From IMG/VR virus record IMGVR_UViG_3300012914_000005, positions 1 to 38,151 of that record: a DNA stretch of 38,151 bases, one strand, 5' to 3'. Shown here in pieces: positions 1 to 15,277 of this stretch. This stretch comes from a virus. Its lineage: Duplodnaviria; Caudoviricetes. The translations under genes were made by a program, and so were the position numbers. How positions within the stretch are numbered: position 1 is the stretch's first letter; each line of letters opens with the position of its first letter. The notes under the pieces were generated by a model that was given only the letters and a program-made list of their open reading frames with translations, was not told the DNA's origin and made no database searches.

Positions 1-73
1 GGCCTTAAAAACGCCGGCCGGAAAATCCATAACTATCATGATCATTTTGAGTTCTGAGTTATGGATTCTGAAC

Positions 74-102
74 TTGTGCATTGCTCTTGCAACTGTTACA
101 CT
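74..102 (+). promoter_or_regulatory. sigma-A-like promoter (leaderless) for the methyltransferase-like gene
   Basis: TTGTGC (74-79), 17 nt spacer, extended -10 TGn-TACACT (97-102); ATG at 109 lies 6 nt downstream with no SD. Confidence 0.55.
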
Positions 103-108
103 CAAGCT

Positions 109-771
109 ATGCCTCGCTTACTAGATCTCTTCGCACGTGCACAAGGAACAAGCGTTGGCTATGCACGTGCAGGGTATGAGGTCACAGCATCTGACATAGC
201 TACATACCCTAAGCATCCTGAGGTACACGCATGGGTTACTGCTGATGCGTTCGACATACTCAAGGATGTGGAGTACTGCCAACAGTTCGACATCATCGCT
301 CTGTCTCCCAACTGTGAGGGGTACTCCTCCCTGCAGTACCTACCTACCTCTACCCCTGTACCCCAACAGATACACCTCGTGCGCCCATTACTACAGCGTA
401 TAGGTAAGCCCTATGTCATAGAGAATGTGGCATTAGCGCGTTGGGCCATGATCAACCCCATACGTATGTGTGGTAGTGCATTCAACCTGGGGTCTATGTG
501 CAGAGACGGTAACTACAGACAGCTGAGACGACACCGATTGTTCGAATCGAACATCCCTCTGAACTACCCCTTCGGCTGCACCCATGCCCCCCTGACAGGT
601 GGGGTGTACGGCACAGGTGGGGGTGGCCCCCAGACCAGGGGATACCGATTCTGGCCGGAGGAAGCCCGTACAGCAATGGGCATTGATTGGATGGGTCGAG
701 AGGACATCTGTAAGGCCATTCCCCCGGTGTACACCGAAACCATCGGCCGATATCTGCTCAACCGAATTTAG
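109..771 (+). CDS. C5 cytosine DNA methyltransferase-like protein (short phage type)
   Basis: RLLDLF start (motif I, degenerate FARAQG), SPNC (motif IV), YVIENV (motif VI), RHRLFE and KAIPPVYT..IG, typical of short actinophage DNA methylases; ATG 109 preferred over 61. Confidence 0.75.
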   Translation: MPRLLDLFARAQGTSVGYARAGYEVTASDIATYPKHPEVHAWVTADAFDILKDVEYCQQFDIIALSPNCEGYSSLQYLPTSTPVPQQIHLVRPLLQRIGKPYVIENVALARWAMINPIRMCGSAFNLGSMCRDGNYRQLRRHRLFESNIPLNYPFGCTHAPLTGGVYGTGGGGPQTRGYRFWPEEARTAMGIDWMGREDICKAIPPVYTETIGRYLLNRI

Positions 772-780
772 GAGAAGATC

Positions 781-966
781 ATGGAACTGATGAGCCTCAA
801 GGATTTCGGCATTGCGGCCGGCCGCAATGCGACCACGATTCAGTCCTGGATCAGCCGGGGTCAGCACGAGATCCCGGAGCCTCTGGGCCGGTGCTCCGCT
901 GGGTCGATCTGGCGAGCCGAGGACATTCACCGGTGGGTCAGGGGTCACCCGGAATTGTGCCGCTAG
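781..966 (+). CDS. small AlpA/excisionase-like HTH DNA-binding protein
   Basis: 61 aa; AGGAG RBS; HTH-like LMSLKDFG..TIQSW followed by PEP...IW..EDI..W. Confidence 0.65.
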   Translation: MELMSLKDFGIAAGRNATTIQSWISRGQHEIPEPLGRCSAGSIWRAEDIHRWVRGHPELCR

Positions 967-1295
967 AAATCGTCGATCGAGACGTAGAGCCCCAACCGTA
1001 GCGGGCTGGGGCTCTTTCGTTCTTTGTCTCGGTTGCACTGGGCATGGCTGGCCTGCAGGTTGGACCGCACCTCGGCCAGCTCCGGGTGCGTCCTGGCCGG
1101 CCGGATGTGGTCGGCCTGGAACGCCATCGGGTCGCCCTTGCGCCGCCACGCCTCGATCTCCTGGCCGCACAGGGCGCAGATGGGTTCTTCCCGCTTGACG
1201 ATGGCGCAGAGCCGCCAGTAGGTCTGTGAGCGGGGCGTGAAGCGGCTCACCAGATCGGCCGGCCCCGGTCCAGCCGGTGACCGAGGACCAGCCAC
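963..1295 (-). CDS. HNH endonuclease (cos-cleavage/terminase accessory type)
   Basis: CALCG...ADHIRP...NLQASHAQCNRDK; near the genome end and co-oriented with terminase. Confidence 0.9.
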   Translation of the reverse strand: MAGPRSPAGPGPADLVSRFTPRSQTYWRLCAIVKREEPICALCGQEIEAWRRKGDPMAFQADHIRPARTHPELAEVRSNLQASHAQCNRDKERKSPSPLRLGLYVSIDDF

Positions 1296-1492
1296 TCAGG
1301 ATGCCGGGCGTACCCCTCGGCCATGGTGATCCCCCGCTTCCAGCACCGCATATGGACCATTCTGCAGTGCTTGCAGACCCGGGCCTGGTTCTGGCCTGAA
1401 ACCAGGGTGTTCTCCGGGGTGTACGGGTGGCCCCACGGGCAGTGGTCGGCCTGGACCGGTGCGAACTGCCCCGTTGCGTTCCGGTGCCTCAC
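1247..1492 (-). CDS. small Zn-binding protein (CPxGHPYTPENT...CxxC domain seen appended to actinophage HNH proteins)
   Basis: HCPWGHPYTPENT...RVCKHC; GTG 1492 overlaps the upstream stop (GTGA). Confidence 0.6.
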   Translation of the reverse strand: MRHRNATGQFAPVQADHCPWGHPYTPENTLVSGQNQARVCKHCRMVHMRCWKRGITMAEGYARHPEWLVLGHRLDRGRPIW

Positions 1493-1602
1493 GTCAGGAC
1501 CAGGCCCTCGTACCAGCCACAGGCGTTGGCGGTCAGGTTCAGCAGGGCCAGGCTGTAGGTGACCCGCCACATGCACTTCACGTAGGTACTGAAAGTGTCC
1601 AT
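1489..1602 (-). CDS. 37 aa hypothetical protein (MDTFSTYVKCMWRV...)
   Basis: GAAAGGA RBS before ATG 1602; GTGA coupling to the next gene; below the ORF-track cutoff. Confidence 0.55.
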   Translation of the reverse strand: MDTFSTYVKCMWRVTYSLALLNLTANACGWYEGLVLT

Positions 1603-1628
1603 GGTGCACGTCCTTTCGTCTACGGCGC

Positions 1629-1725
1629 GTCAGCAGGTCGGTCGGACCATCGCGCCGACCCATGCACTGTGCCCAGGAGGTGACCCGCCAGCCTTGAACG
1701 GCTGTATACCGGGTGACCTGCTGAC
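1629..1725 (-). ncRNA. structured RNA unit C (GUCAGCAGG-closed multibranch)
   Basis: 11 bp closing stem GTCAGCAGGTC/GACCTGCTGAC enclosing hairpins CAGCC-GTTCAA-GGCTG (on ACCCG/CGGGT) and GGTCGG-CGCGATGGT-CCGACC. Confidence 0.6.
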
Positions 1726-1732
1726 CGCCCGT

Positions 1733-1792
1733 ACGCTGCCCAGGGCTTGAACCTGGCCTCCCTTTCCGGGGCTCACCGACGAGCTACAGCGC
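1733..1792 (-). ncRNA. tRNA-like RNA with a vestigial anticodon arm
   Basis: acceptor GCGCTGT/GCAGCGT, D arm GCTC-GTCGGT-GAGC, mini arm CCC-GGAAA-GGG, T arm CCAGG-TTCAAGC-CCTGG; no encoded CCA. Confidence 0.75.
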
Positions 1793-1796
1793 TACC

Positions 1797-1852
1797 GTCA
1801 GCAGCTTTCCGGACCGGCTCCGGGGGCCTCGGTACCATCGGCCCCTGCTGAC
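1797..1852 (-). ncRNA. structured RNA unit B (three-way junction)
   Basis: GTCAGCAG/CTGCTGAC closing stem enclosing GGGCC/GGCCC and CCGGA/TCCGG hairpins. Confidence 0.6.
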
Positions 1853-1857
1853 TACGC

Positions 1858-1915
1858 ACAACGGCGGAGATTCGAACTCCCGAGGTGTCGAGCACCTGTG
1901 ACCAGCATCCGTTGC
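1858..1915 (-). ncRNA. degenerate tRNA-like RNA
   Basis: acceptor GCAACGG/CCGTTGT, unpaired TGG-containing D-like segment, AGGTG-CTCGA-CACCT hairpin, T arm GGAG-TTCGAAT-CTCC. Confidence 0.65.
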
Positions 1916-1943
1916 TCCACACCGGCTGCAGTCCAGTGCTTCG

Positions 1944-1996
1944 GTCAGGAGGAGTTTCTCCGGGCTGAGCCTCAGTCCGGGCTGGTTCCTGCTGAC
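1944..1996 (-). ncRNA. structured RNA unit A, starting at the predicted TSS
   Basis: begins GTCAGCAGG and ends TCCTGAC (imperfect closing stem); inner CTGA/TCAG and GGAG-AAA-CTCC hairpins. Confidence 0.45.
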
Positions 1997-2487
1997 ATGT
2001 CCATAGTGGCATCTCTGTCTAGAGCTGTCAACACCCGGGGCGCCGGCGGGTCAATCAGATACCGGGCCAGCCGGATGCCGACCTCAGGCCGGTCGCCGAT
2101 GTAGCCCAGGTAGCGGTTGCACGTGCTGCAGAGAATGCCCCGCACGGTCTCCCGCTTCGGGAAGCCCCGTCGCTCCAGCTCGTGATCATGATCCACCGCC
2201 CCCGCCTTGACCACCCCGACTCGGCGTAGGCAGATCGCGCACCTGCCTCGCTGTGTGGCCTTCAGAGCCTCCACTTCCTCGGTGAGCCACCCGTACAGCC
2301 GCTTCACCGTGCTGGCCCGGCCCTGGGTGCGCCGACGCCGTTTCCGGGCGTACCAGCACGCTCGGCAGAGACCGTCCAGGTGGGTCAACCGGTGCCCGTG
2401 GCCCTCGGTGGAGCACCCCCGGGGCCGGTCATCAGAACTCATAACTCGTAACTCATAAGTCATCCCATCACTTATAACTTGTGCCAT
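1972..2487 (-). CDS. recombination endonuclease VII family protein
   Basis: QRGRCAIC...VDHDH...VRGILCSTCNRYLG signature; the true start may be ATG 2442. Confidence 0.9.
   Translation of the reverse strand: MAQVISDGMTYELRVMSSDDRPRGCSTEGHGHRLTHLDGLCRACWYARKRRRRTQGRASTVKRLYGWLTEEVEALKATQRGRCAICLRRVGVVKAGAVDHDHELERRGFPKRETVRGILCSTCNRYLGYIGDRPEVGIRLARYLIDPPAPRVLTALDRDATMDMSAGTSPD
2003..2031 (-). promoter_or_regulatory. sigma-A-like promoter of the ncRNA array, with an operator-like box
   Basis: TTGACA (2031-2026), 17 nt, CACTAT (2008-2003); spacer holds TCTCTGTCTAGAG, also present at 15255-15267. Confidence 0.75.
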
Positions 2488-2700
2488 AACTTATACCGCC
2501 TACTCTCTGTGCCCAAGGTGACTCTCTGTACCTACTTATCAAAAATGGCTCGTTTCCCGGATGTTGATAAGTGATAAGTTGATAAGTGGACATACTGGTA
2601 CTTATCAACTACTTATCATTTATCACTTATCAGGAACACGAGGATTCTTGATAAGTAGTCCTGATACGTAGACTTGTGGGGCGGTCCAGTAACTTATGCC
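2440..2700. repeat. AT-rich iteron cluster, probable replication origin
   Basis: eight ACTTATC/GATAAGT heptamers in both orientations (2534, 2566, 2573, 2581, 2600, 2611, 2625, 2650) plus variants, at the 3' end of the primase-helicase gene. Confidence 0.75.
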
Positions 2701-4818
2701 GTCCACCTTGGAGGGCTCGATACCCATAGCCTTACGGGCCCGCTGCACCGTGGCGAACGAGTGCCCGGCCTCCTTCGCCACGTCGACCACCAGGGCCGCC
2801 GGCGACGTCCCGTGGTCGGCCAGGTAGTCCAACAACCACTGCCCGGCGGCGCCGGACTTGGTGGTCTTGCGCTTGGGCGCCTCGTCCGCCACGGAGTCGG
2901 TCACGTTGTTCTGAATCAACACCGGCTCCATCTCGATCTTGCTGGAGCGGATCGGCTTGCCCAGCTCGTGATCCGTCCCGGTGATCACCCCGACGATCCG
3001 GTACCGGATACTGGCCATCACCTTGGGCCCGAGGTTCGACTTCAGCTGACCGAACACGAACGACCGCCCGGTATCGCCGGCAGAGCCGAAGTCCTCCTCG
3101 TCCGGTTCCTCGTCCTCGGCCTCCTCCGCACACAACAGCACCGCCCGGGCCACCGCCGAGAAGGCCCGCGACCCCATCAGCCGGGTGAGGATGTCCGAGC
3201 CCGTGGACTTGTTCTGATGGATCAGCCCGATCACGGTCAGCTGCAGATCGGCGGCCAGCCGGCTCAGCGGCTCCAGCGCTTTGCGCACGTCCGAGTCCTT
3301 GTGGGTGTCCAGCGACCCGCCCACGGTGCTGAGCAGGGGGTCCAGCAGGATCAGCGCCACCTCGTAGCGCTCACACCCCTCTCGCAGTGCTGCGATGTCC
3401 TGGACCAGGCTCATTCCCCGCAACACCCCGTCCGCTTCGGCGATGTCGACCCGGGCCACCCGGTGCAAATCGGCCCCCGCCGCCAGCAGCCGGGGCTGAA
3501 TCGTCTGCTCCCAGGCATCCTCGGTCGCAGCGATCACCACCGACCGCGGGATGCCGAAGTAGTCGCCGGCCAGCGTCCCCCGGGTGATCTGGGCCGCCAG
3601 CCAGAACGCCAGCGTGGACTTGCCGACGCCCTCACGCCCGCCCAGCAGGACCAGACCGCCCAGAGGCACCCACTGGTGCCCGTCCTCCTCCCATAGCCAG
3701 CGAGAGGCTCGCTGGGCGAGGCTGGAAGCCCAGGTGAACCTCATGCCCGGCCCGGCCTGCACGGCCAGCGGGGCTACAGCGGGTTCTCCCGGCTCATCGG
3801 TGCCCGGGTCACCGAACGCATCCGGCTCCGGGGTGAAGTTCGTCAGCGGCGCCTCGTAGGTCCGCACCGCCACCGTGGCTGCCCGCTGACCATGGTCCTC
3901 GTTCTCGACCTGGCCGAGGGCCCAGAGGCTGATGCCGTCGAACTCCCGCACCGCCTCATCCTCGGACCGGACCGATCCTGACCCCAGATCCTCGCGCCCG
4001 ACCGCGTCCAGGAACAGCGCTCGCAGCGTCTCCTCCGCCCAGGCGAACGGATACACCCCCGCCAGAGCGTCCCGGTAGGCGAACGAGGCGACCTCGGTCA
4101 TAGCGACGTGCCGGGACTGCCCCTCGGTCATCAGCCGCTCCCAGCGGGTCAGCGGGCCCCGGCGGAACAGCTCCGGATCGATCGACCCGGTGACCGCTCC
4201 CCGCAGCTGCAGCAGTCGCCCGGCTGAGGCTGGGTCCAGCTCCGGGGCCGCGTCCCGGAGCTGTTCGGCCAGCACGCCCGGTAGCTCCGGCACCGGTCCG
4301 GCGCGCAACCACCGGTAGATCCCTCCGTTGCCATGGTGGACATGCTGGCTGGGTTCGACCACGATCACCCCGTTCCGGCCCCGGACCTCACCCCACCCCT
4401 TGCCCAGGCCACCGATCGAGTTACCGATGTCGCGCCCGGCCGGCTGGGTGAACAGGTAGTGGCCGCGGTAGACACCGGCGGTCCGCCAGGACTCGGGCCT
4501 GGTCAGCTGGACCGGACCGGTGTGCGCTCGCAGCACCTCGGCCAGCGGCCCCACCACCTTGGACGGGTGGTCGACGTCCAGCGCCACCGCCCCGGACCGG
4601 CCCATGTGCAGGAATACGGCAGCCTGGGGCCACCTAGCCCACCACGTGCGGATCTGCTCCGGGTCCCGGGACGTCTGGCGCTGCCACCCGGCACCGAGCA
4701 GTCCGCCGGGGTTCTTGGCCCGGTCAGCGTCGTAGGGCCCGACGTACCAGCCAGCCGCGGCGTAGAGCTCAGCGGCGTAGGCGACCGGGGCGCCGGTGGG
4801 AATCTGCGGAATGATCAT
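2623..4818 (-). CDS. bifunctional primase/polymerase (Prim-Pol) fused to an AAA_25/RepA-type helicase
   Basis: N-term GW.V.P, VALDVD, GHYLF, VRGRNGVIVVEPS; C-term Walker A GREGVGKS, Walker B LILLDP, IHQNK, GS; ATG 4818 overlaps the upstream stop. Confidence 0.9.
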   Translation of the reverse strand: MIIPQIPTGAPVAYAAELYAAAGWYVGPYDADRAKNPGGLLGAGWQRQTSRDPEQIRTWWARWPQAAVFLHMGRSGAVALDVDHPSKVVGPLAEVLRAHTGPVQLTRPESWRTAGVYRGHYLFTQPAGRDIGNSIGGLGKGWGEVRGRNGVIVVEPSQHVHHGNGGIYRWLRAGPVPELPGVLAEQLRDAAPELDPASAGRLLQLRGAVTGSIDPELFRRGPLTRWERLMTEGQSRHVAMTEVASFAYRDALAGVYPFAWAEETLRALFLDAVGREDLGSGSVRSEDEAVREFDGISLWALGQVENEDHGQRAATVAVRTYEAPLTNFTPEPDAFGDPGTDEPGEPAVAPLAVQAGPGMRFTWASSLAQRASRWLWEEDGHQWVPLGGLVLLGGREGVGKSTLAFWLAAQITRGTLAGDYFGIPRSVVIAATEDAWEQTIQPRLLAAGADLHRVARVDIAEADGVLRGMSLVQDIAALREGCERYEVALILLDPLLSTVGGSLDTHKDSDVRKALEPLSRLAADLQLTVIGLIHQNKSTGSDILTRLMGSRAFSAVARAVLLCAEEAEDEEPDEEDFGSAGDTGRSFVFGQLKSNLGPKVMASIRYRIVGVITGTDHELGKPIRSSKIEMEPVLIQNNVTDSVADEAPKRKTTKSGAAGQWLLDYLADHGTSPAALVVDVAKEAGHSFATVQRARKAMGIEPSKVDGISYWTAPQVYVSGLLIKNPRVPDK

Positions 4819-5345
4819 CGCAGCATCCACTCCGGAGCCGGGGTGGTCCCACCGACCAGCCGGTAGGCGCCCTGTCCGGCCAGTTCGGCGGGCGGAACCA
4901 GAACGTAGTGATCACCAGAGAGCAAAGTCCATTCTGCTCCGGCCATCGTCCCGGGCCCAGGGTGACCTTCCGGCAGGGTGAACCACCAATCCCCGATACC
5001 GTCCGGGCCCTGGACGCTCATCCCCGGCGCCGCCGGCATCGTCAGCACCGCCAGACCGGATCGTCCCAGGTGGAGGCCGATATTGGCCCCCTCGTGCTCC
5101 CAGTTCTTGACGATGGCGCTCACCCTGGAAGGGTTGTCGATCACGTGGTTGGCCCCGCACAGGTGGTCAGGGTCACGCTTGCGTTGGGTCGGGGTGAGGA
5201 TGCATCCGGGCGTAGCGGTGCCGGGCAGGCACAGCACCGGGGACCACCCGGCCCGGACGATCGCTCTGATGTGCTCGGTCAGGTGGCCGGCGATGTGGCT
5301 GGGAGCCCCGCCGAACACAGAAGCGAACTGGTCAACGCCGATCAT
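4815..5345 (-). CDS. degenerate stand-alone Prim-Pol-like domain protein
   Basis: GWSPV..., ANIGLHLGRSGLAVL, YVLVPP, GAYRL match the Prim-Pol scaffold, but the DxD is missing. Confidence 0.65.
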   Translation of the reverse strand: MIGVDQFASVFGGAPSHIAGHLTEHIRAIVRAGWSPVLCLPGTATPGCILTPTQRKRDPDHLCGANHVIDNPSRVSAIVKNWEHEGANIGLHLGRSGLAVLTMPAAPGMSVQGPDGIGDWWFTLPEGHPGPGTMAGAEWTLLSGDHYVLVPPAELAGQGAYRLVGGTTPAPEWMLR

Positions 5346-5572
5346 TCTTCATCCTCACAGTACGTGCACGATTCGTAGACGCTGCAGCCACACTCGCTCC
5401 GGGGTAGGTCGATCGGGCCGATGAACCCCACCGGCCTGGTCCATGACCATCTGCCGTCGTTGTGGGGTTTCTGCCAGCCATCCGGACCTGGCATGTCGTG
5501 GTTCGGGTGCGCTCTTACGGTGCAGACATGGCTGCTACCAGCGAATTCCGCTGTGGTGCCGCAGACCTTCAT
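5342..5572 (-). CDS. 76 aa Cys/His-rich hypothetical protein
   Basis: TAATG coupling with polymerase and ATGA coupling with the downstream gene. Confidence 0.6.
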   Translation of the reverse strand: MKVCGTTAEFAGSSHVCTVRAHPNHDMPGPDGWQKPHNDGRWSWTRPVGFIGPIDLPRSECGCSVYESCTYCEDEE

Positions 5573-7473
5573 TACGCTTTCCCCCAACGGTTTCCGAGGT
5601 GCTTGAGGTCGGTACGGATCACCGGAACACGCCCGGCCAGTTCGACCAGCCGAGGGTGCGGTGTTTCCATCAGTCGTTGCACGTCTCTCGAAACCTCTCT
5701 GTCGCAAATGATTTCGTCATGCATACCCCACTTGAGTTGCATCCCGTACCCGGCCCGGCGCGCCTGGACGATGGTCCAGTGCAGCTCAGCCGAGGCCGAT
5801 CCCGAGGTGTTGTAGTTCGGCCACTTGTGGGCCTGGACAGACCATTCGCCGTTGTAGGTGCCCGAGGGGATCGGCACAATCCGGCCGTCCATGCACCACG
5901 CCACCCGGTGCTCACGAGCGATCTGCTTGCCCTGCTTGAGGAACCCGGCGGTCCGGGGCATCGCACCGAACACCTGGGCCTGCAGATCCTTCGCCGCGGC
6001 ATACCCGTAGTGGGCCTCCACCACCTTGCCCCACCGCACCGACTCCGGCATCCAGGGGTCGAACGGCAGGCCCAGGTCGATGCTCAGTTTCTTGACGCCC
6101 TCACCATACAGCCCAGCCAGGACAACGACTTTCGCCATGTCCAACGGGATCTCCGCGTAGTCGGCGATGCCCTGGTAGATCTTGGTGCCGTGGTTCTCGT
6201 AGTCCAGCAGGGGCCGGCCGATGTCGCCGGCCAGGTTCATGATCACCCGAGGTTCCTGCTGCGACCAGTCGACCGAGGTGAACTCCCGGCCCGGGTCGGC
6301 GATCATGATCGCCCGGGCGTCACCGGGGAACTGGTGCACCGGCGGGTCCGCCATGGCGTCCCGGCCGTGCGCCGCCTTGTAGACCGTGGTGGTGGGGTGG
6401 ATGCGGCCGTTCACATCGGCCATGTCCCGGCACTTTTCGAGGTATCCCAGCATCTTCTCGTTCTCGGCCACCAGGGCCCAGACCCGGGCCAGCGGGTGAC
6501 TCAGGAGAGCGACGTCGTCCTGGGCGGTACCCAGCTTGCCGCCGGTCTCTTTCCCGGTCTTCTCGTTGATCTTGACCGGGGTCCGGCGGTGATCGGCGGG
6601 TACCTCCCCGATCGAGTCCAGGTAGCTCAACAGCCGGTTGCCGTTGCTGATCCCGTAGGACGTCAGGATGCCCCGGCCCCGCTGGGTGCGGTCCAGCACC
6701 TTGTTCTGGTACTGCTGCAGGTAGTCCGGGTCGTACAGCACGCCGTCCAGGGTGCGCTCCAGTGCCCAGCGGTTCGCCTCGTGGGCCTGGGCGACCAGAT
6801 CCTCCGCCCCGGCCCGGGACAGGCCGATACGGTCGCCGAACGGGTGGTTCAGCTGGCGCTCCACCGCGGCTTTGTGGACCAGCGGCCAGACCAGCGCGGT
6901 GGCGATCCCGTCCGATCCGGCACCCATCAGGTAGGCCGGAGAGTCGATGTCCAGGTGGAGGAACCCCTCGGTCTTGCTGGAGTACCCCATGGCCTTAAAC
7001 AGGTGCTGGATCGGCTTGGACTCGGTGCCGAGGTAGCGCTTGCAACAGGCGTCCAGGTCCCGCGGTGTGGTGTCTCCTGGTTCGGCCAGCCGGGCCAGCA
7101 GCAGGGTACAAACGATCTTATCGACGTGCTCGTGGACCAGCATCCGGTTCAGGTACAGGCTGAGCGCGTCGAACTCTGCCTTGTGCATGATCAGCGTGCT
7201 GGCGTAGTCCAGGGCTCGCCGGATCTCTGCAGCCTGGCCCGGGACCCGGGGGTTCAGCACCACGGCGGATCGATTGGTCGAGAGGATCACGCACTTGATC
7301 CGGCCCGGTCCGGCATCCTTGCCGATCCCGAACGTCTCGATGTCGACCACCAACGGACAGGGCCCGTTGCGGAAGATCTGGGCCAGCTCATCCACCCCGG
7401 CCTGGCCGGCCGTGACCGTGGTCCCGGGGAACCCGGGCAGGGGCAATGTTTCGGAAAAAGCAAAATCAGGCAT
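5572..7473 (-). CDS. polA: family A DNA polymerase with 3'-5' exonuclease domain
   Basis: ExoI VVDIET, ExoII HKAEFD, motif A DWSQQEPR, motif B AKVVVLAGLYG, motif C MHDEI. Confidence 0.93.
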   Translation of the reverse strand: MPDFAFSETLPLPGFPGTTVTAGQAGVDELAQIFRNGPCPLVVDIETFGIGKDAGPGRIKCVILSTNRSAVVLNPRVPGQAAEIRRALDYASTLIMHKAEFDALSLYLNRMLVHEHVDKIVCTLLLARLAEPGDTTPRDLDACCKRYLGTESKPIQHLFKAMGYSSKTEGFLHLDIDSPAYLMGAGSDGIATALVWPLVHKAAVERQLNHPFGDRIGLSRAGAEDLVAQAHEANRWALERTLDGVLYDPDYLQQYQNKVLDRTQRGRGILTSYGISNGNRLLSYLDSIGEVPADHRRTPVKINEKTGKETGGKLGTAQDDVALLSHPLARVWALVAENEKMLGYLEKCRDMADVNGRIHPTTTVYKAAHGRDAMADPPVHQFPGDARAIMIADPGREFTSVDWSQQEPRVIMNLAGDIGRPLLDYENHGTKIYQGIADYAEIPLDMAKVVVLAGLYGEGVKKLSIDLGLPFDPWMPESVRWGKVVEAHYGYAAAKDLQAQVFGAMPRTAGFLKQGKQIAREHRVAWCMDGRIVPIPSGTYNGEWSVQAHKWPNYNTSGSASAELHWTIVQARRAGYGMQLKWGMHDEIICDREVSRDVQRLMETPHPRLVELAGRVPVIRTDLKHLGNRWGKA

Positions 7474-8838: not shown

Positions 8839-9075
8839 CTAAACCTTGTCGGGGCAGTGGATTTCCCCGCCATCACAGGCGGAGTCGTGCACGTGGTCGC
8901 CTCCCGGAGCCGGGACCATGCTGGTGATGACGGCCCGGTCGTAGCGGATCTCGGCCGGGCGGAGCCGGCCACCGACCTCCACCCGGCCGGGGGTGCCTGG
9001 CGGGAACGTTCGTTCCAGCGTGCGGACGCTGCAGCCCAGGGCCGCCGCCGCCTCGGTCTTGCTCATCGTTTCCAT
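8839..9075 (-). CDS. HTH DNA-binding protein (excisionase/Cro-like)
   Basis: MSKTEAAAALGCSVRTLER helix-turn-helix; first, leaderless gene of the leftward operon. Confidence 0.8.
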   Translation of the reverse strand: METMSKTEAAAALGCSVRTLERTFPPGTPGRVEVGGRLRPAEIRYDRAVITSMVPAPGGDHVHDSACDGGEIHCPDKV

Positions 9076-9081
9076 GAGGCC

Positions 9082-9124
9082 ATTCTGTCATCGACTTGAC
9101 GGCAGTGTCCACTCTGTCTAAAGT
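9082..9124. promoter_or_regulatory. overlapping divergent promoters
   Basis: plus: TTGACG (9096-9101)-17-TAAAGT (9119-9124); minus: TGGACA (9111-9106)-18-CAGAAT (9087-9082); CTCTGTCTA box at 9112-9120. Confidence 0.7.
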
Positions 9125-15248: not shown

Positions 15249-15277
15249 TTGACGTCTCTGTCTAGAGTGTCTATAGT
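15249..15277 (+). promoter_or_regulatory. strong sigma-A-like promoter, leaderless, with operator-like box
   Basis: TTGACG-17-TATAGT; ATG 15284 lies 6 nt downstream; TCTCTGTCTAGAG in the spacer. Confidence 0.85.

Follow-up and report, generated by a model that had tools for sequence, protein, structure and literature searches.

The window analysed here is a whole virus record of 38,151 bp (IMGVR_UViG_3300012914_000005; CheckV completeness estimate 44%), and the subject of this report is a short array of predicted small RNAs on its minus strand, between an endonuclease VII gene and the small open reading frames (ORFs) leading to an HNH gene. The window comes from an uncultured actinophage-like siphovirus and encodes terminase, portal, protease, capsid, tail tube, tape measure and endolysin as well as a helicase, an exonuclease, a family A polymerase and a Prim-Pol/AAA protein; because its best GenBank relatives are mycobacteriophages (about 35% identity), an actinobacterial host is likely. 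Read along the minus strand, the array comprises unit A, a small hairpin, a first tRNA-like element (t1), unit B, a second tRNA-like element (t2) and unit C; a preliminary description made from the sequence alone had drawn up this order, and every one of the elements is indeed present at its coordinates on that strand.

Unit A (53 nucleotides (nt), 1944-1996, minus strand, as are all array elements) has a closing stem with one C.C mismatch and reaches a z score of -2.0 when folded alone. Unit B (56 nt, 1797-1852) is a three-way junction on a perfect 8-bp closing stem (z -3.4) and unit C (97 nt, 1629-1725) has an 11-bp closing stem, extendable to 1733/1621 (z -4.05), whose pair probabilities are 0.92-1.0 in the full transcript. 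The linkers from t1 to B, from B to t2 and from t2 to C measure 4, 4 and 6 nt (5, 4 and 7 if the discriminator is counted). The linker between A and t1 contains the hairpin announced there, with 7 bp and a 7-nt loop (1919-1939), which is weak and not significant (z -1.1). All three units start at their 5' end with the same 9-mer, GTCAGCAGG, as had been proposed; shuffling the 401-nt region 5000 times produced a threefold 9-mer of any kind in just 25 cases, so this threefold presence is beyond chance. The sequence GTCAGCAG has 8 matches in the window versus 1.67 expected, 5 of the 8 falling inside the array. The common closing sequence that was also claimed is perfect in B and C, which close on CTGCTGAC, and is broken in A by the C.C mismatch. 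B and C have CGATGGT(A)CCGA in common, again as predicted, and the alignment of their interiors is better than that of 1964 of 2000 shuffles, which is modest support.

The tRNA-like element t1 (1915-1858, with discriminator G1857) has a 7-bp acceptor, a 5-bp arm with a 5-nt loop and a 4-bp T stem with a TTCGAAT loop, while t2 (1792-1733, with discriminator A1732) has a 7-bp acceptor, a D arm, a 3-bp arm with a 5-nt loop in place of the anticodon arm and a 5-bp T stem with a TTCAAGC loop; both are without CCA. Folded alone, each adopts as its lowest-energy fold an acceptor, short arm(s) and a T-arm, with a weak z of -1.55 for t2, and the t2 acceptor keeps pair probabilities of 0.62-0.98 in the full transcript. 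Set against a canonical tRNA, t1 and t2 both possess the 7-bp acceptor and the T-loop hairpin and neither has a 5-bp anticodon stem with a 7-nt loop, in agreement with their description as anticodon-less. Of the checks that had been suggested, ARAGORN called 0 tRNA genes and the Rfam tRNA model RF00005 gave no match at E <= 5.

A stem of the consensus GUCRGCRG/CYGCYGAC is found behind a T-loop in other phages as well, with compensatory changes at two pairs and interiors that are unrelated across lineages; the proposed family of units, with a common stem and a variable interior behind tRNA-type elements, is supported by this recurrence in four other phage lineages. The first exact scans (T-loop, then closed stem) turned up a 65-nt unit after a tRNA-Asn (L246/L257), a unit behind a 113-nt tRNA-like RNA in a Streptomyces-type phage (L452) and, in a phage whose host is unknown, one behind a 144-nt tRNA-like RNA (L460). 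In a degenerate scan of IMG/VR for a T-loop plus GTCNGCNG...CNGCNGAC, stem positions 4 and 7 were freed on both strands, with a 45-75 gap and a T-loop-to-stem spacing of 12-24 nt allowed. It returned 70 loci, 17 of them with an intact T stem, and both free positions were Watson-Crick in 8/17 loci with a T stem versus 5/53 without (2 further with G.U). In all eight, positions 4 and 7 are purines (A or G), and the 12 combinations that include a pyrimidine are not seen. The eight loci carry the stem versions GTCAGCAG (four loci), GTCAGCGG (three) and GTCGGCGG (one); L533, L582 and L565 (all GTCAGCGG) and L532 (GTCGGCGG) were new. The spacing between T-loop motif and stem is 16-19 nt in all nine instances listed (seven external loci plus B and C), which in canonical geometry places the stem 4-7 nt behind the discriminator.

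The units of L533, L582 and L565 are homologous to that of L452, have a four-way fold and lie between two tRNAs called by ARAGORN, just as B lies between t1 and t2, so that ordinary tRNA maturation would excise them; a unit so placed would come out with tails of 4-7 nt. The upstream element is a canonical tRNA in L531, L533 and L582 and a non-canonical one in L532 (99 nt), L566 (113 nt) and L595 (144 nt), and decoding therefore appears dispensable; the range runs from canonical tRNAs to RNAs with reduced or enlarged anticodon arms, as would suit a cut mark. In alignment A2, where L566 is compared with L533, L565 and L582, stem pair 7 changes from A-U to G-C among clear homologues. Self-complementary hexamers are present in the predicted loops of 5 of 10 units (window positions 1836-1831 in B and 1709-1704 in C, and the loops of L533, L582 and L566), and kissing-loop dimers would be possible; L565 does not conserve them.

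Wider scans place these loci against their background. The closed stem alone gave mostly chance matches in coding sequence among the 120 listed of about 590, as did a scan for two spaced 9-mers and one for the 9-bp closed stem. In another scan, with 95 matches, L246/L257 alone was tRNA-linked; among 54 metagenome matches the tRNA-linked ones were L351 (the same phage as L246), L370, L372/L380, L376 and L382, and among 46 GTDB matches L405. The bacterial hairpins among these were left out of the family count because they resemble ordinary post-tRNA hairpins. As a rough control, two samples of 401 actinobacterial genomes (some in both) had 33 and 26 genomes matching the stem pattern, and of 55 loci checked from them one (L652) stands behind a tRNA. 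The array itself has no blastn match among 50,697 GenBank phage records, and a primase-based IMG/VR search for homologues of its locus found none; L393, the window's own record, was excluded. The closest primase relatives are at 81%, 56% and 54%. The L452 and L582 units gave nothing real by blastn against GenBank phages.

A related phage in run X2 contributes one contig of depth 2.1 that covers 1735-1885 (151 nt), with four changes. Three of them are in predicted stems and all three are pairing-neutral: at 1786 the t2 acceptor pair U7.G66 becomes C-G, at 1801 a G-C of the B stem becomes G.U, a change that fits an RNA, and at 1837 a U.G in the first arm of B becomes C-G. The fourth (1839) falls in an internal loop. 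In the 79-aa ORF that overlaps the array, and that has no credible Pfam match, three of the four changes are non-synonymous, and on these two grounds a coding reading was set aside. Other X2 pieces, from flanking genes, are 2-11% different. Nothing in run X3 covers the array.

From sequence and folds we predict, with a probability of about one half, that RNase P together with RNase Z or RNase E releases stem-closed small RNAs from the array. The array would then be a compact operon of phage small RNAs: three units that share a GUCAGCAG closing stem, interleaved with two tRNA look-alikes that have no anticodon and serve as cut marks. RNase P reads the acceptor/T-arm half of its substrates and RNase Z prefers CCA-less precursors. 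A phage-regulated promoter would fire at about 1996, RNase P would cut 5' of 1915 and 1792, and a 3' endonuclease would cut behind 1857 and 1732, giving A with its linker (about 82 nt) and B with 4-nt tails (64 nt); C would form the 5' end of the downstream mRNA or become a trimmed RNA. In Streptomyces coelicolor, which has tRNase Z, RNase E and RNase J, 53 of 65 tRNAs are without an encoded CCA, and cleavage occurs a few nt behind such tRNAs (PMC4681348); on this analogy, actinobacteria possess the enzymes that the processing model needs. Against RNase J and 3' exonucleases the stem would shield the newly made ends. Its fixed sequence also suggests recognition by a protein, of the host or of the phage, which may be why it is kept. 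Should all this hold, the released RNAs might have a role in trans, that of ligand or decoy for some RNA-binding protein or nuclease of the host being the most plausible; this is a guess, and a rather doubtful one. It would be bolder still, and we think it unlikely, that phages (actinophages and some others) deploy the GUCRGCRG stem as a sequence-specific handle by which interchangeable payloads dock on one host protein or nuclease, with tRNAs or their mimics only cutting the payloads out; in this phage the handle would have been triplicated and the tRNAs reduced to cut marks, as a natural multiplexed anti-host RNA cassette.

Several results weigh against the release of separate units, beginning with the folds. 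t1 is without a proper D arm and folds no better than shuffles (z -0.5). For the uncut 385-nt transcript, ViennaRNA gives a lowest energy of -178.6 kcal/mol versus -156.4 kcal/mol for the modular fold; in the lowest-energy fold the 5' strand of A pairs with the 3' strand of B, and in the ensemble C and t2 persist while the A stem, the B stem and the t1 acceptor (probability about 0) are lost. The equilibrium fold of the uncut RNA thus departs from the modular arrangement at A, t1 and B. The comparative evidence has its own weaknesses: 4 of the 8 supporting loci were known before the 45-75 gap was chosen, the 8 loci collapse to 4 lineages of about 12, and the covariation statistics are circular and no independent evidence, since they rest on alignment A3, which was selected for pairing and gaps out the mismatch of A. 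When the tRNA condition is dropped, the stem has 46 IMG/VR matches versus roughly 37 expected, which is no enrichment. Model R1, built on the L533 group, misses A, B and C; among 38 sources it matched nothing beyond the loci it was trained on, and among 151 genomes it had two chance matches. In L467, closely related to L452, the slot is occupied by an unrelated hairpin, so the unit would be dispensable or exchangeable there, and no partner gene common to the loci with listed ORFs was seen. Because R1 misses A, B and C, the L467 slot differs and the stem is not enriched without a tRNA, the family is defined by stem plus position and not by interior. As for X2, its changes may be errors in a small, low-depth sample, and about half of random stem transitions keep pairing.

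The real rivals of the release model are a barrier acting only in cis and a single long A-B RNA. In the latter, A, t1 and B would be parts of a single 200-nt RNA whose closing helix joins the 5' strand of A to the 3' strand of B, with t2 as the sole cut mark and t1 as an internal T-loop module or a switch hiding the RNase P site. This is both the lowest-energy and the centroid fold; its closing helix has 8 bp, A and B form 12 further pairs, and the closing stem of A itself has a mismatch. Its z of -2.0, however, is weaker than that of B alone, and it leaves unexplained why B retains a GTCAGCAGG of its own at the spacing of the family, with a 7-bp acceptor and discriminator ending 4 nt before it. 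Moreover, the sub-stretch 1915-1790 folded alone returns to t1 plus B (1915-1726 retains B and loses t1), and nearest-neighbour models ignore tRNA tertiary contacts and co-transcriptional order. We consider the 200-nt RNA improbable, and in these models the A-t1-B fold is ambiguous, which is the main doubt on the left half of the array. A cis-only function, which we regard as unlikely although it deserves serious attention, would make the units processing spacers or 5'-end stabilisers, the stem blocking 5'-3' decay by RNase J and so protecting the downstream message (the 37-aa ORF and the HNH genes), with no free small RNA that has a job. C, L531, L532 and L595 are each followed within about 45 nt by a site resembling a ribosome-binding site (RBS) and a start codon, no terminator-like site is called behind C, the interiors are unconserved with an exchangeable slot (L467), and actinobacteria have RNase J (PMC4681348). 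B, L533, L582 and L565, on the other hand, precede another tRNA-type element whose 5' end RNase P would set anyway; the L533 group conserves a four-way interior, and a plain barrier needs no set sequence, whereas 6 of 8 stem positions are constant in the matches (partly by design of the pattern).

Three further explanations reverse the roles or change the nature of the elements. That the tRNA mimics are the active products, as decoys for tRNA-targeting nucleases or toxins, with A, B and C as insulating spacers, seems quite improbable to us. tRNA-targeting nucleases usually cut the anticodon loop, which t1 and t2 are without; they also differ from each other, and across phages the conservation sits in the unit stem while the upstream element varies freely. 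In favour of active mimics, phage tRNAs are able to counteract defences that cut tRNAs (PMC11464382), a tRNA-like module of the murine herpesvirus MHV68 is active alone (PMC4337559), and the t2 acceptor is made stronger by the change in X2. Mimicry of a stable host RNA, either a Y RNA as Ro60 ligand or 5S rRNA, is less credible again. Bacterial Y RNAs (YrlA/YrlB, Yrn1/Yrn2; RF02553) have a terminal stem and are co-transcribed with tRNAs or tRNA-like RNAs, and in Mycobacterium smegmatis RNase P cuts YrlA, which shares one precursor with YrlB, at a 7-bp acceptor mimic (PMC4201824). The array resembles them in combining several terminal-stem small RNAs with tRNA-type modules in one (here predicted) precursor, and C contains GGTCCGA; that sequence, at 1648, is in the 3' part of C, not near the 5' end as in a Y RNA, and the array mimics are unpermuted, separate modules. 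Y RNA identity was rejected on three tested features: the 5' motif GNCGAAN0-1G is found only outside the units, at the RBS behind C; a TROVE (Ro60/Rsr) gene is present in 0 of 5 phage records, two of them at least 90% complete; and the array has neither a permuted tRNA domain (T arm before D arm) nor a match to RF02553, whose weak scores in L533, L565 and L582 fall on adjacent tRNA pairs, off the units. As to 5S rRNA, B has an 11-mer in common with 3 of 4 actinobacterial 5S sequences (0-1 of 300 shuffles), and helix I of one of the four (L660) reads GTCGGTGG/CCACCGAC, one position outside GUCRGCRG; against this, RF00001 has no match in the phage at E <= 10, the other unit interiors are at about chance level over 40 comparisons, and X2 alters two bases of the 11-mer. 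Least credible of all is that the units are inverted repeats at the DNA level (miniature mobile or REP-like elements) lying by chance behind tRNA-like sequences: GTCAGCAG-closed hairpins do occur in bacterial contigs, some behind tRNA genes (L370, L372, L376, L382), but an RNA is indicated by the G.U-neutral changes, the branched interiors, the strand-fixed place behind T arms and the promoter ahead of the array.

Rfam gave two unrelated chance matches on window positions 1-6000 at E <= 5 and, on the loci of six relatives, nothing on the units; an exact GUCRGCRG closed stem was absent from two rRNA operon stretches, three RNase P RNAs, three tmRNAs and three SRP RNAs, and a literature search, conducted largely without subscription papers and supplements, found no description of such a stem family, which on these comparisons is uncatalogued. 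mascRNA and menRNA are reportedly non-aminoacylated tRNA-like modules that act as processing signals beside a cargo RNA. The MHV68 TMERs likewise have such a module as processing signal (PMC4337559). In the array, too, a CCA-less tRNA-like module directly adjoins a cargo RNA; TMERs and mascRNA, however, are eukaryotic with miRNA or lncRNA cargo, whereas in the array a predicted bacterial-type promoter precedes modules that alternate with stem-closed cargo. RNA C and RNA D of phage T4 are small stable RNAs of its tRNA region, of unknown role (PMC3014915, PMC9697503), and so resemble the units as small non-coding RNAs from a phage tRNA region, some relatives of which lie between tRNA genes (L533, L582, L565); judged by their description they are set apart from the array by its anticodon-less flanking mimics, its three units with one closing stem and its actinophage-type host. 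Polycistrons of irregular tRNAs and allo-tRNAs form non-canonical arrays in soil bacteria and phages, some of them probably outside translation (PMC5389517). They share with our array the succession of non-canonical tRNA-like RNAs, and differ from it in keeping a cloverleaf with an anticodon arm; cargo with a shared stem is not mentioned in the available part of that paper.

For the promoter of the array, the proposal had been TTGACA and CACTAT separated by 17 nt. The -35 hexamer TTGACA (2026-2031, minus strand; one of four exact copies in the window), the -10 hexamer CACTAT (2003-2008, minus) and the 17-nt spacing are all there, with a predicted +1 near 1998-1996 and an activity that we infer; the -10 box agrees with TATAAT at only 3 of 6 positions, which places it below the threshold of a consensus promoter scanner and is why the scanner calls no promoter at the array. 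The spacer contains an exact copy of a 12-bp motif (CTCT-AGAC-AGAG; 2013-2024, minus). A second exact copy (15256-15267, minus) lies behind TTGACT at the junction of converging gene blocks, and a third, with one mismatch (9112-9123, minus), between divergent ORF starts at 9075 and 9166. None of 100 shuffles reaches the two exact copies seen in the window, and the motif may be an operator common to the array promoter and two other likely control sites. The copy at 15256 is flanked by TTGAC and GTCAA arms, and opposed promoters are possible there.

Upstream, the endonuclease VII gene (1972-2487, minus; PF02945, phrog_307) overlaps with its last codons the promoter and the first 25 nt of unit A, its best PHROG match spanning residues 25-153 of 171. 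Directly 3' of unit C lies the RBS-like GAAAGGA (1611-1617, minus), followed by a 37-aa ORF (1489-1602, minus), with no terminator-like site called between array and ORF; the HNH endonuclease gene (963-1295, minus; PF01844, phrog_338) is further downstream. Right behind the primase gene, an AT-rich patch (2440-2660) with direct and inverted TTATCA/TGATAA repeats is a candidate replication origin. At the contig end, the plus-strand region 61-966 encodes a DNA methyltransferase (phrog_363) and a 61-aa ORF; its lower G+C (0.545) and its orientation, opposite to that of the flanking genes, would be compatible with an insertion.

The survey of other phages yielded some further structured RNAs. A tRNA-like RNA of some 110 nt, its anticodon domain enlarged and branched (L452:3083-3195 (-), L470:647-763, L464:1501-1594), is conserved in Streptomyces-type tRNA clusters and lies unannotated between two capsid genes of Arthrobacter phage EvePickles (L464). 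Such clusters, between integrase and HNH in L465-L474, L533 and L565, contain additional recurring unannotated structured elements between their tRNAs, with no Rfam match in the loci scanned. The 82-kb actinophage-like genome of L246 (L246:639-5671) has single tRNAs scattered among small genes, each with an RBS and a start codon close behind, and also a 92-nt tRNA-like RNA with an elongated anticodon arm. Six virus contigs of 4-5 kb and 35-39% G+C (L486, L494, L500, L502, L504, L522) share an intergenic element that has GTCAGCAGGA/TCCTGCTGAC as its closing sequences; no tRNA is called near it, and it is probably unrelated. L487 (= L061):1201-1272 is a 72-nt GTCAGCAGGA-closed hairpin without a tRNA, preceded by a promoter-like stretch and followed by an RBS and a start codon.

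In an actinophage, non-coding regions rank among the loci with the highest transcription (PMC10986025). What is new here, at the level of sequence, is a GUCRGCRG stem at a set distance behind a T-loop across phage lineages, and an operator-like motif in a promoter spacer. The array is a small, self-contained test case, with one predicted promoter, two cut marks, three units and ends predicted to the base, and its stem, of which natural compensatory variants exist, can be mutated and used as bait. tRNAs already serve as punctuation in engineered tRNA-guide arrays. If it is true that the stem has a dedicated protein partner, the units would represent a new phage RNA family and point to a new host target; if the stem is only a processing barrier, a bacterial virus would still be using anticodon-less tRNA mimics as punctuation.

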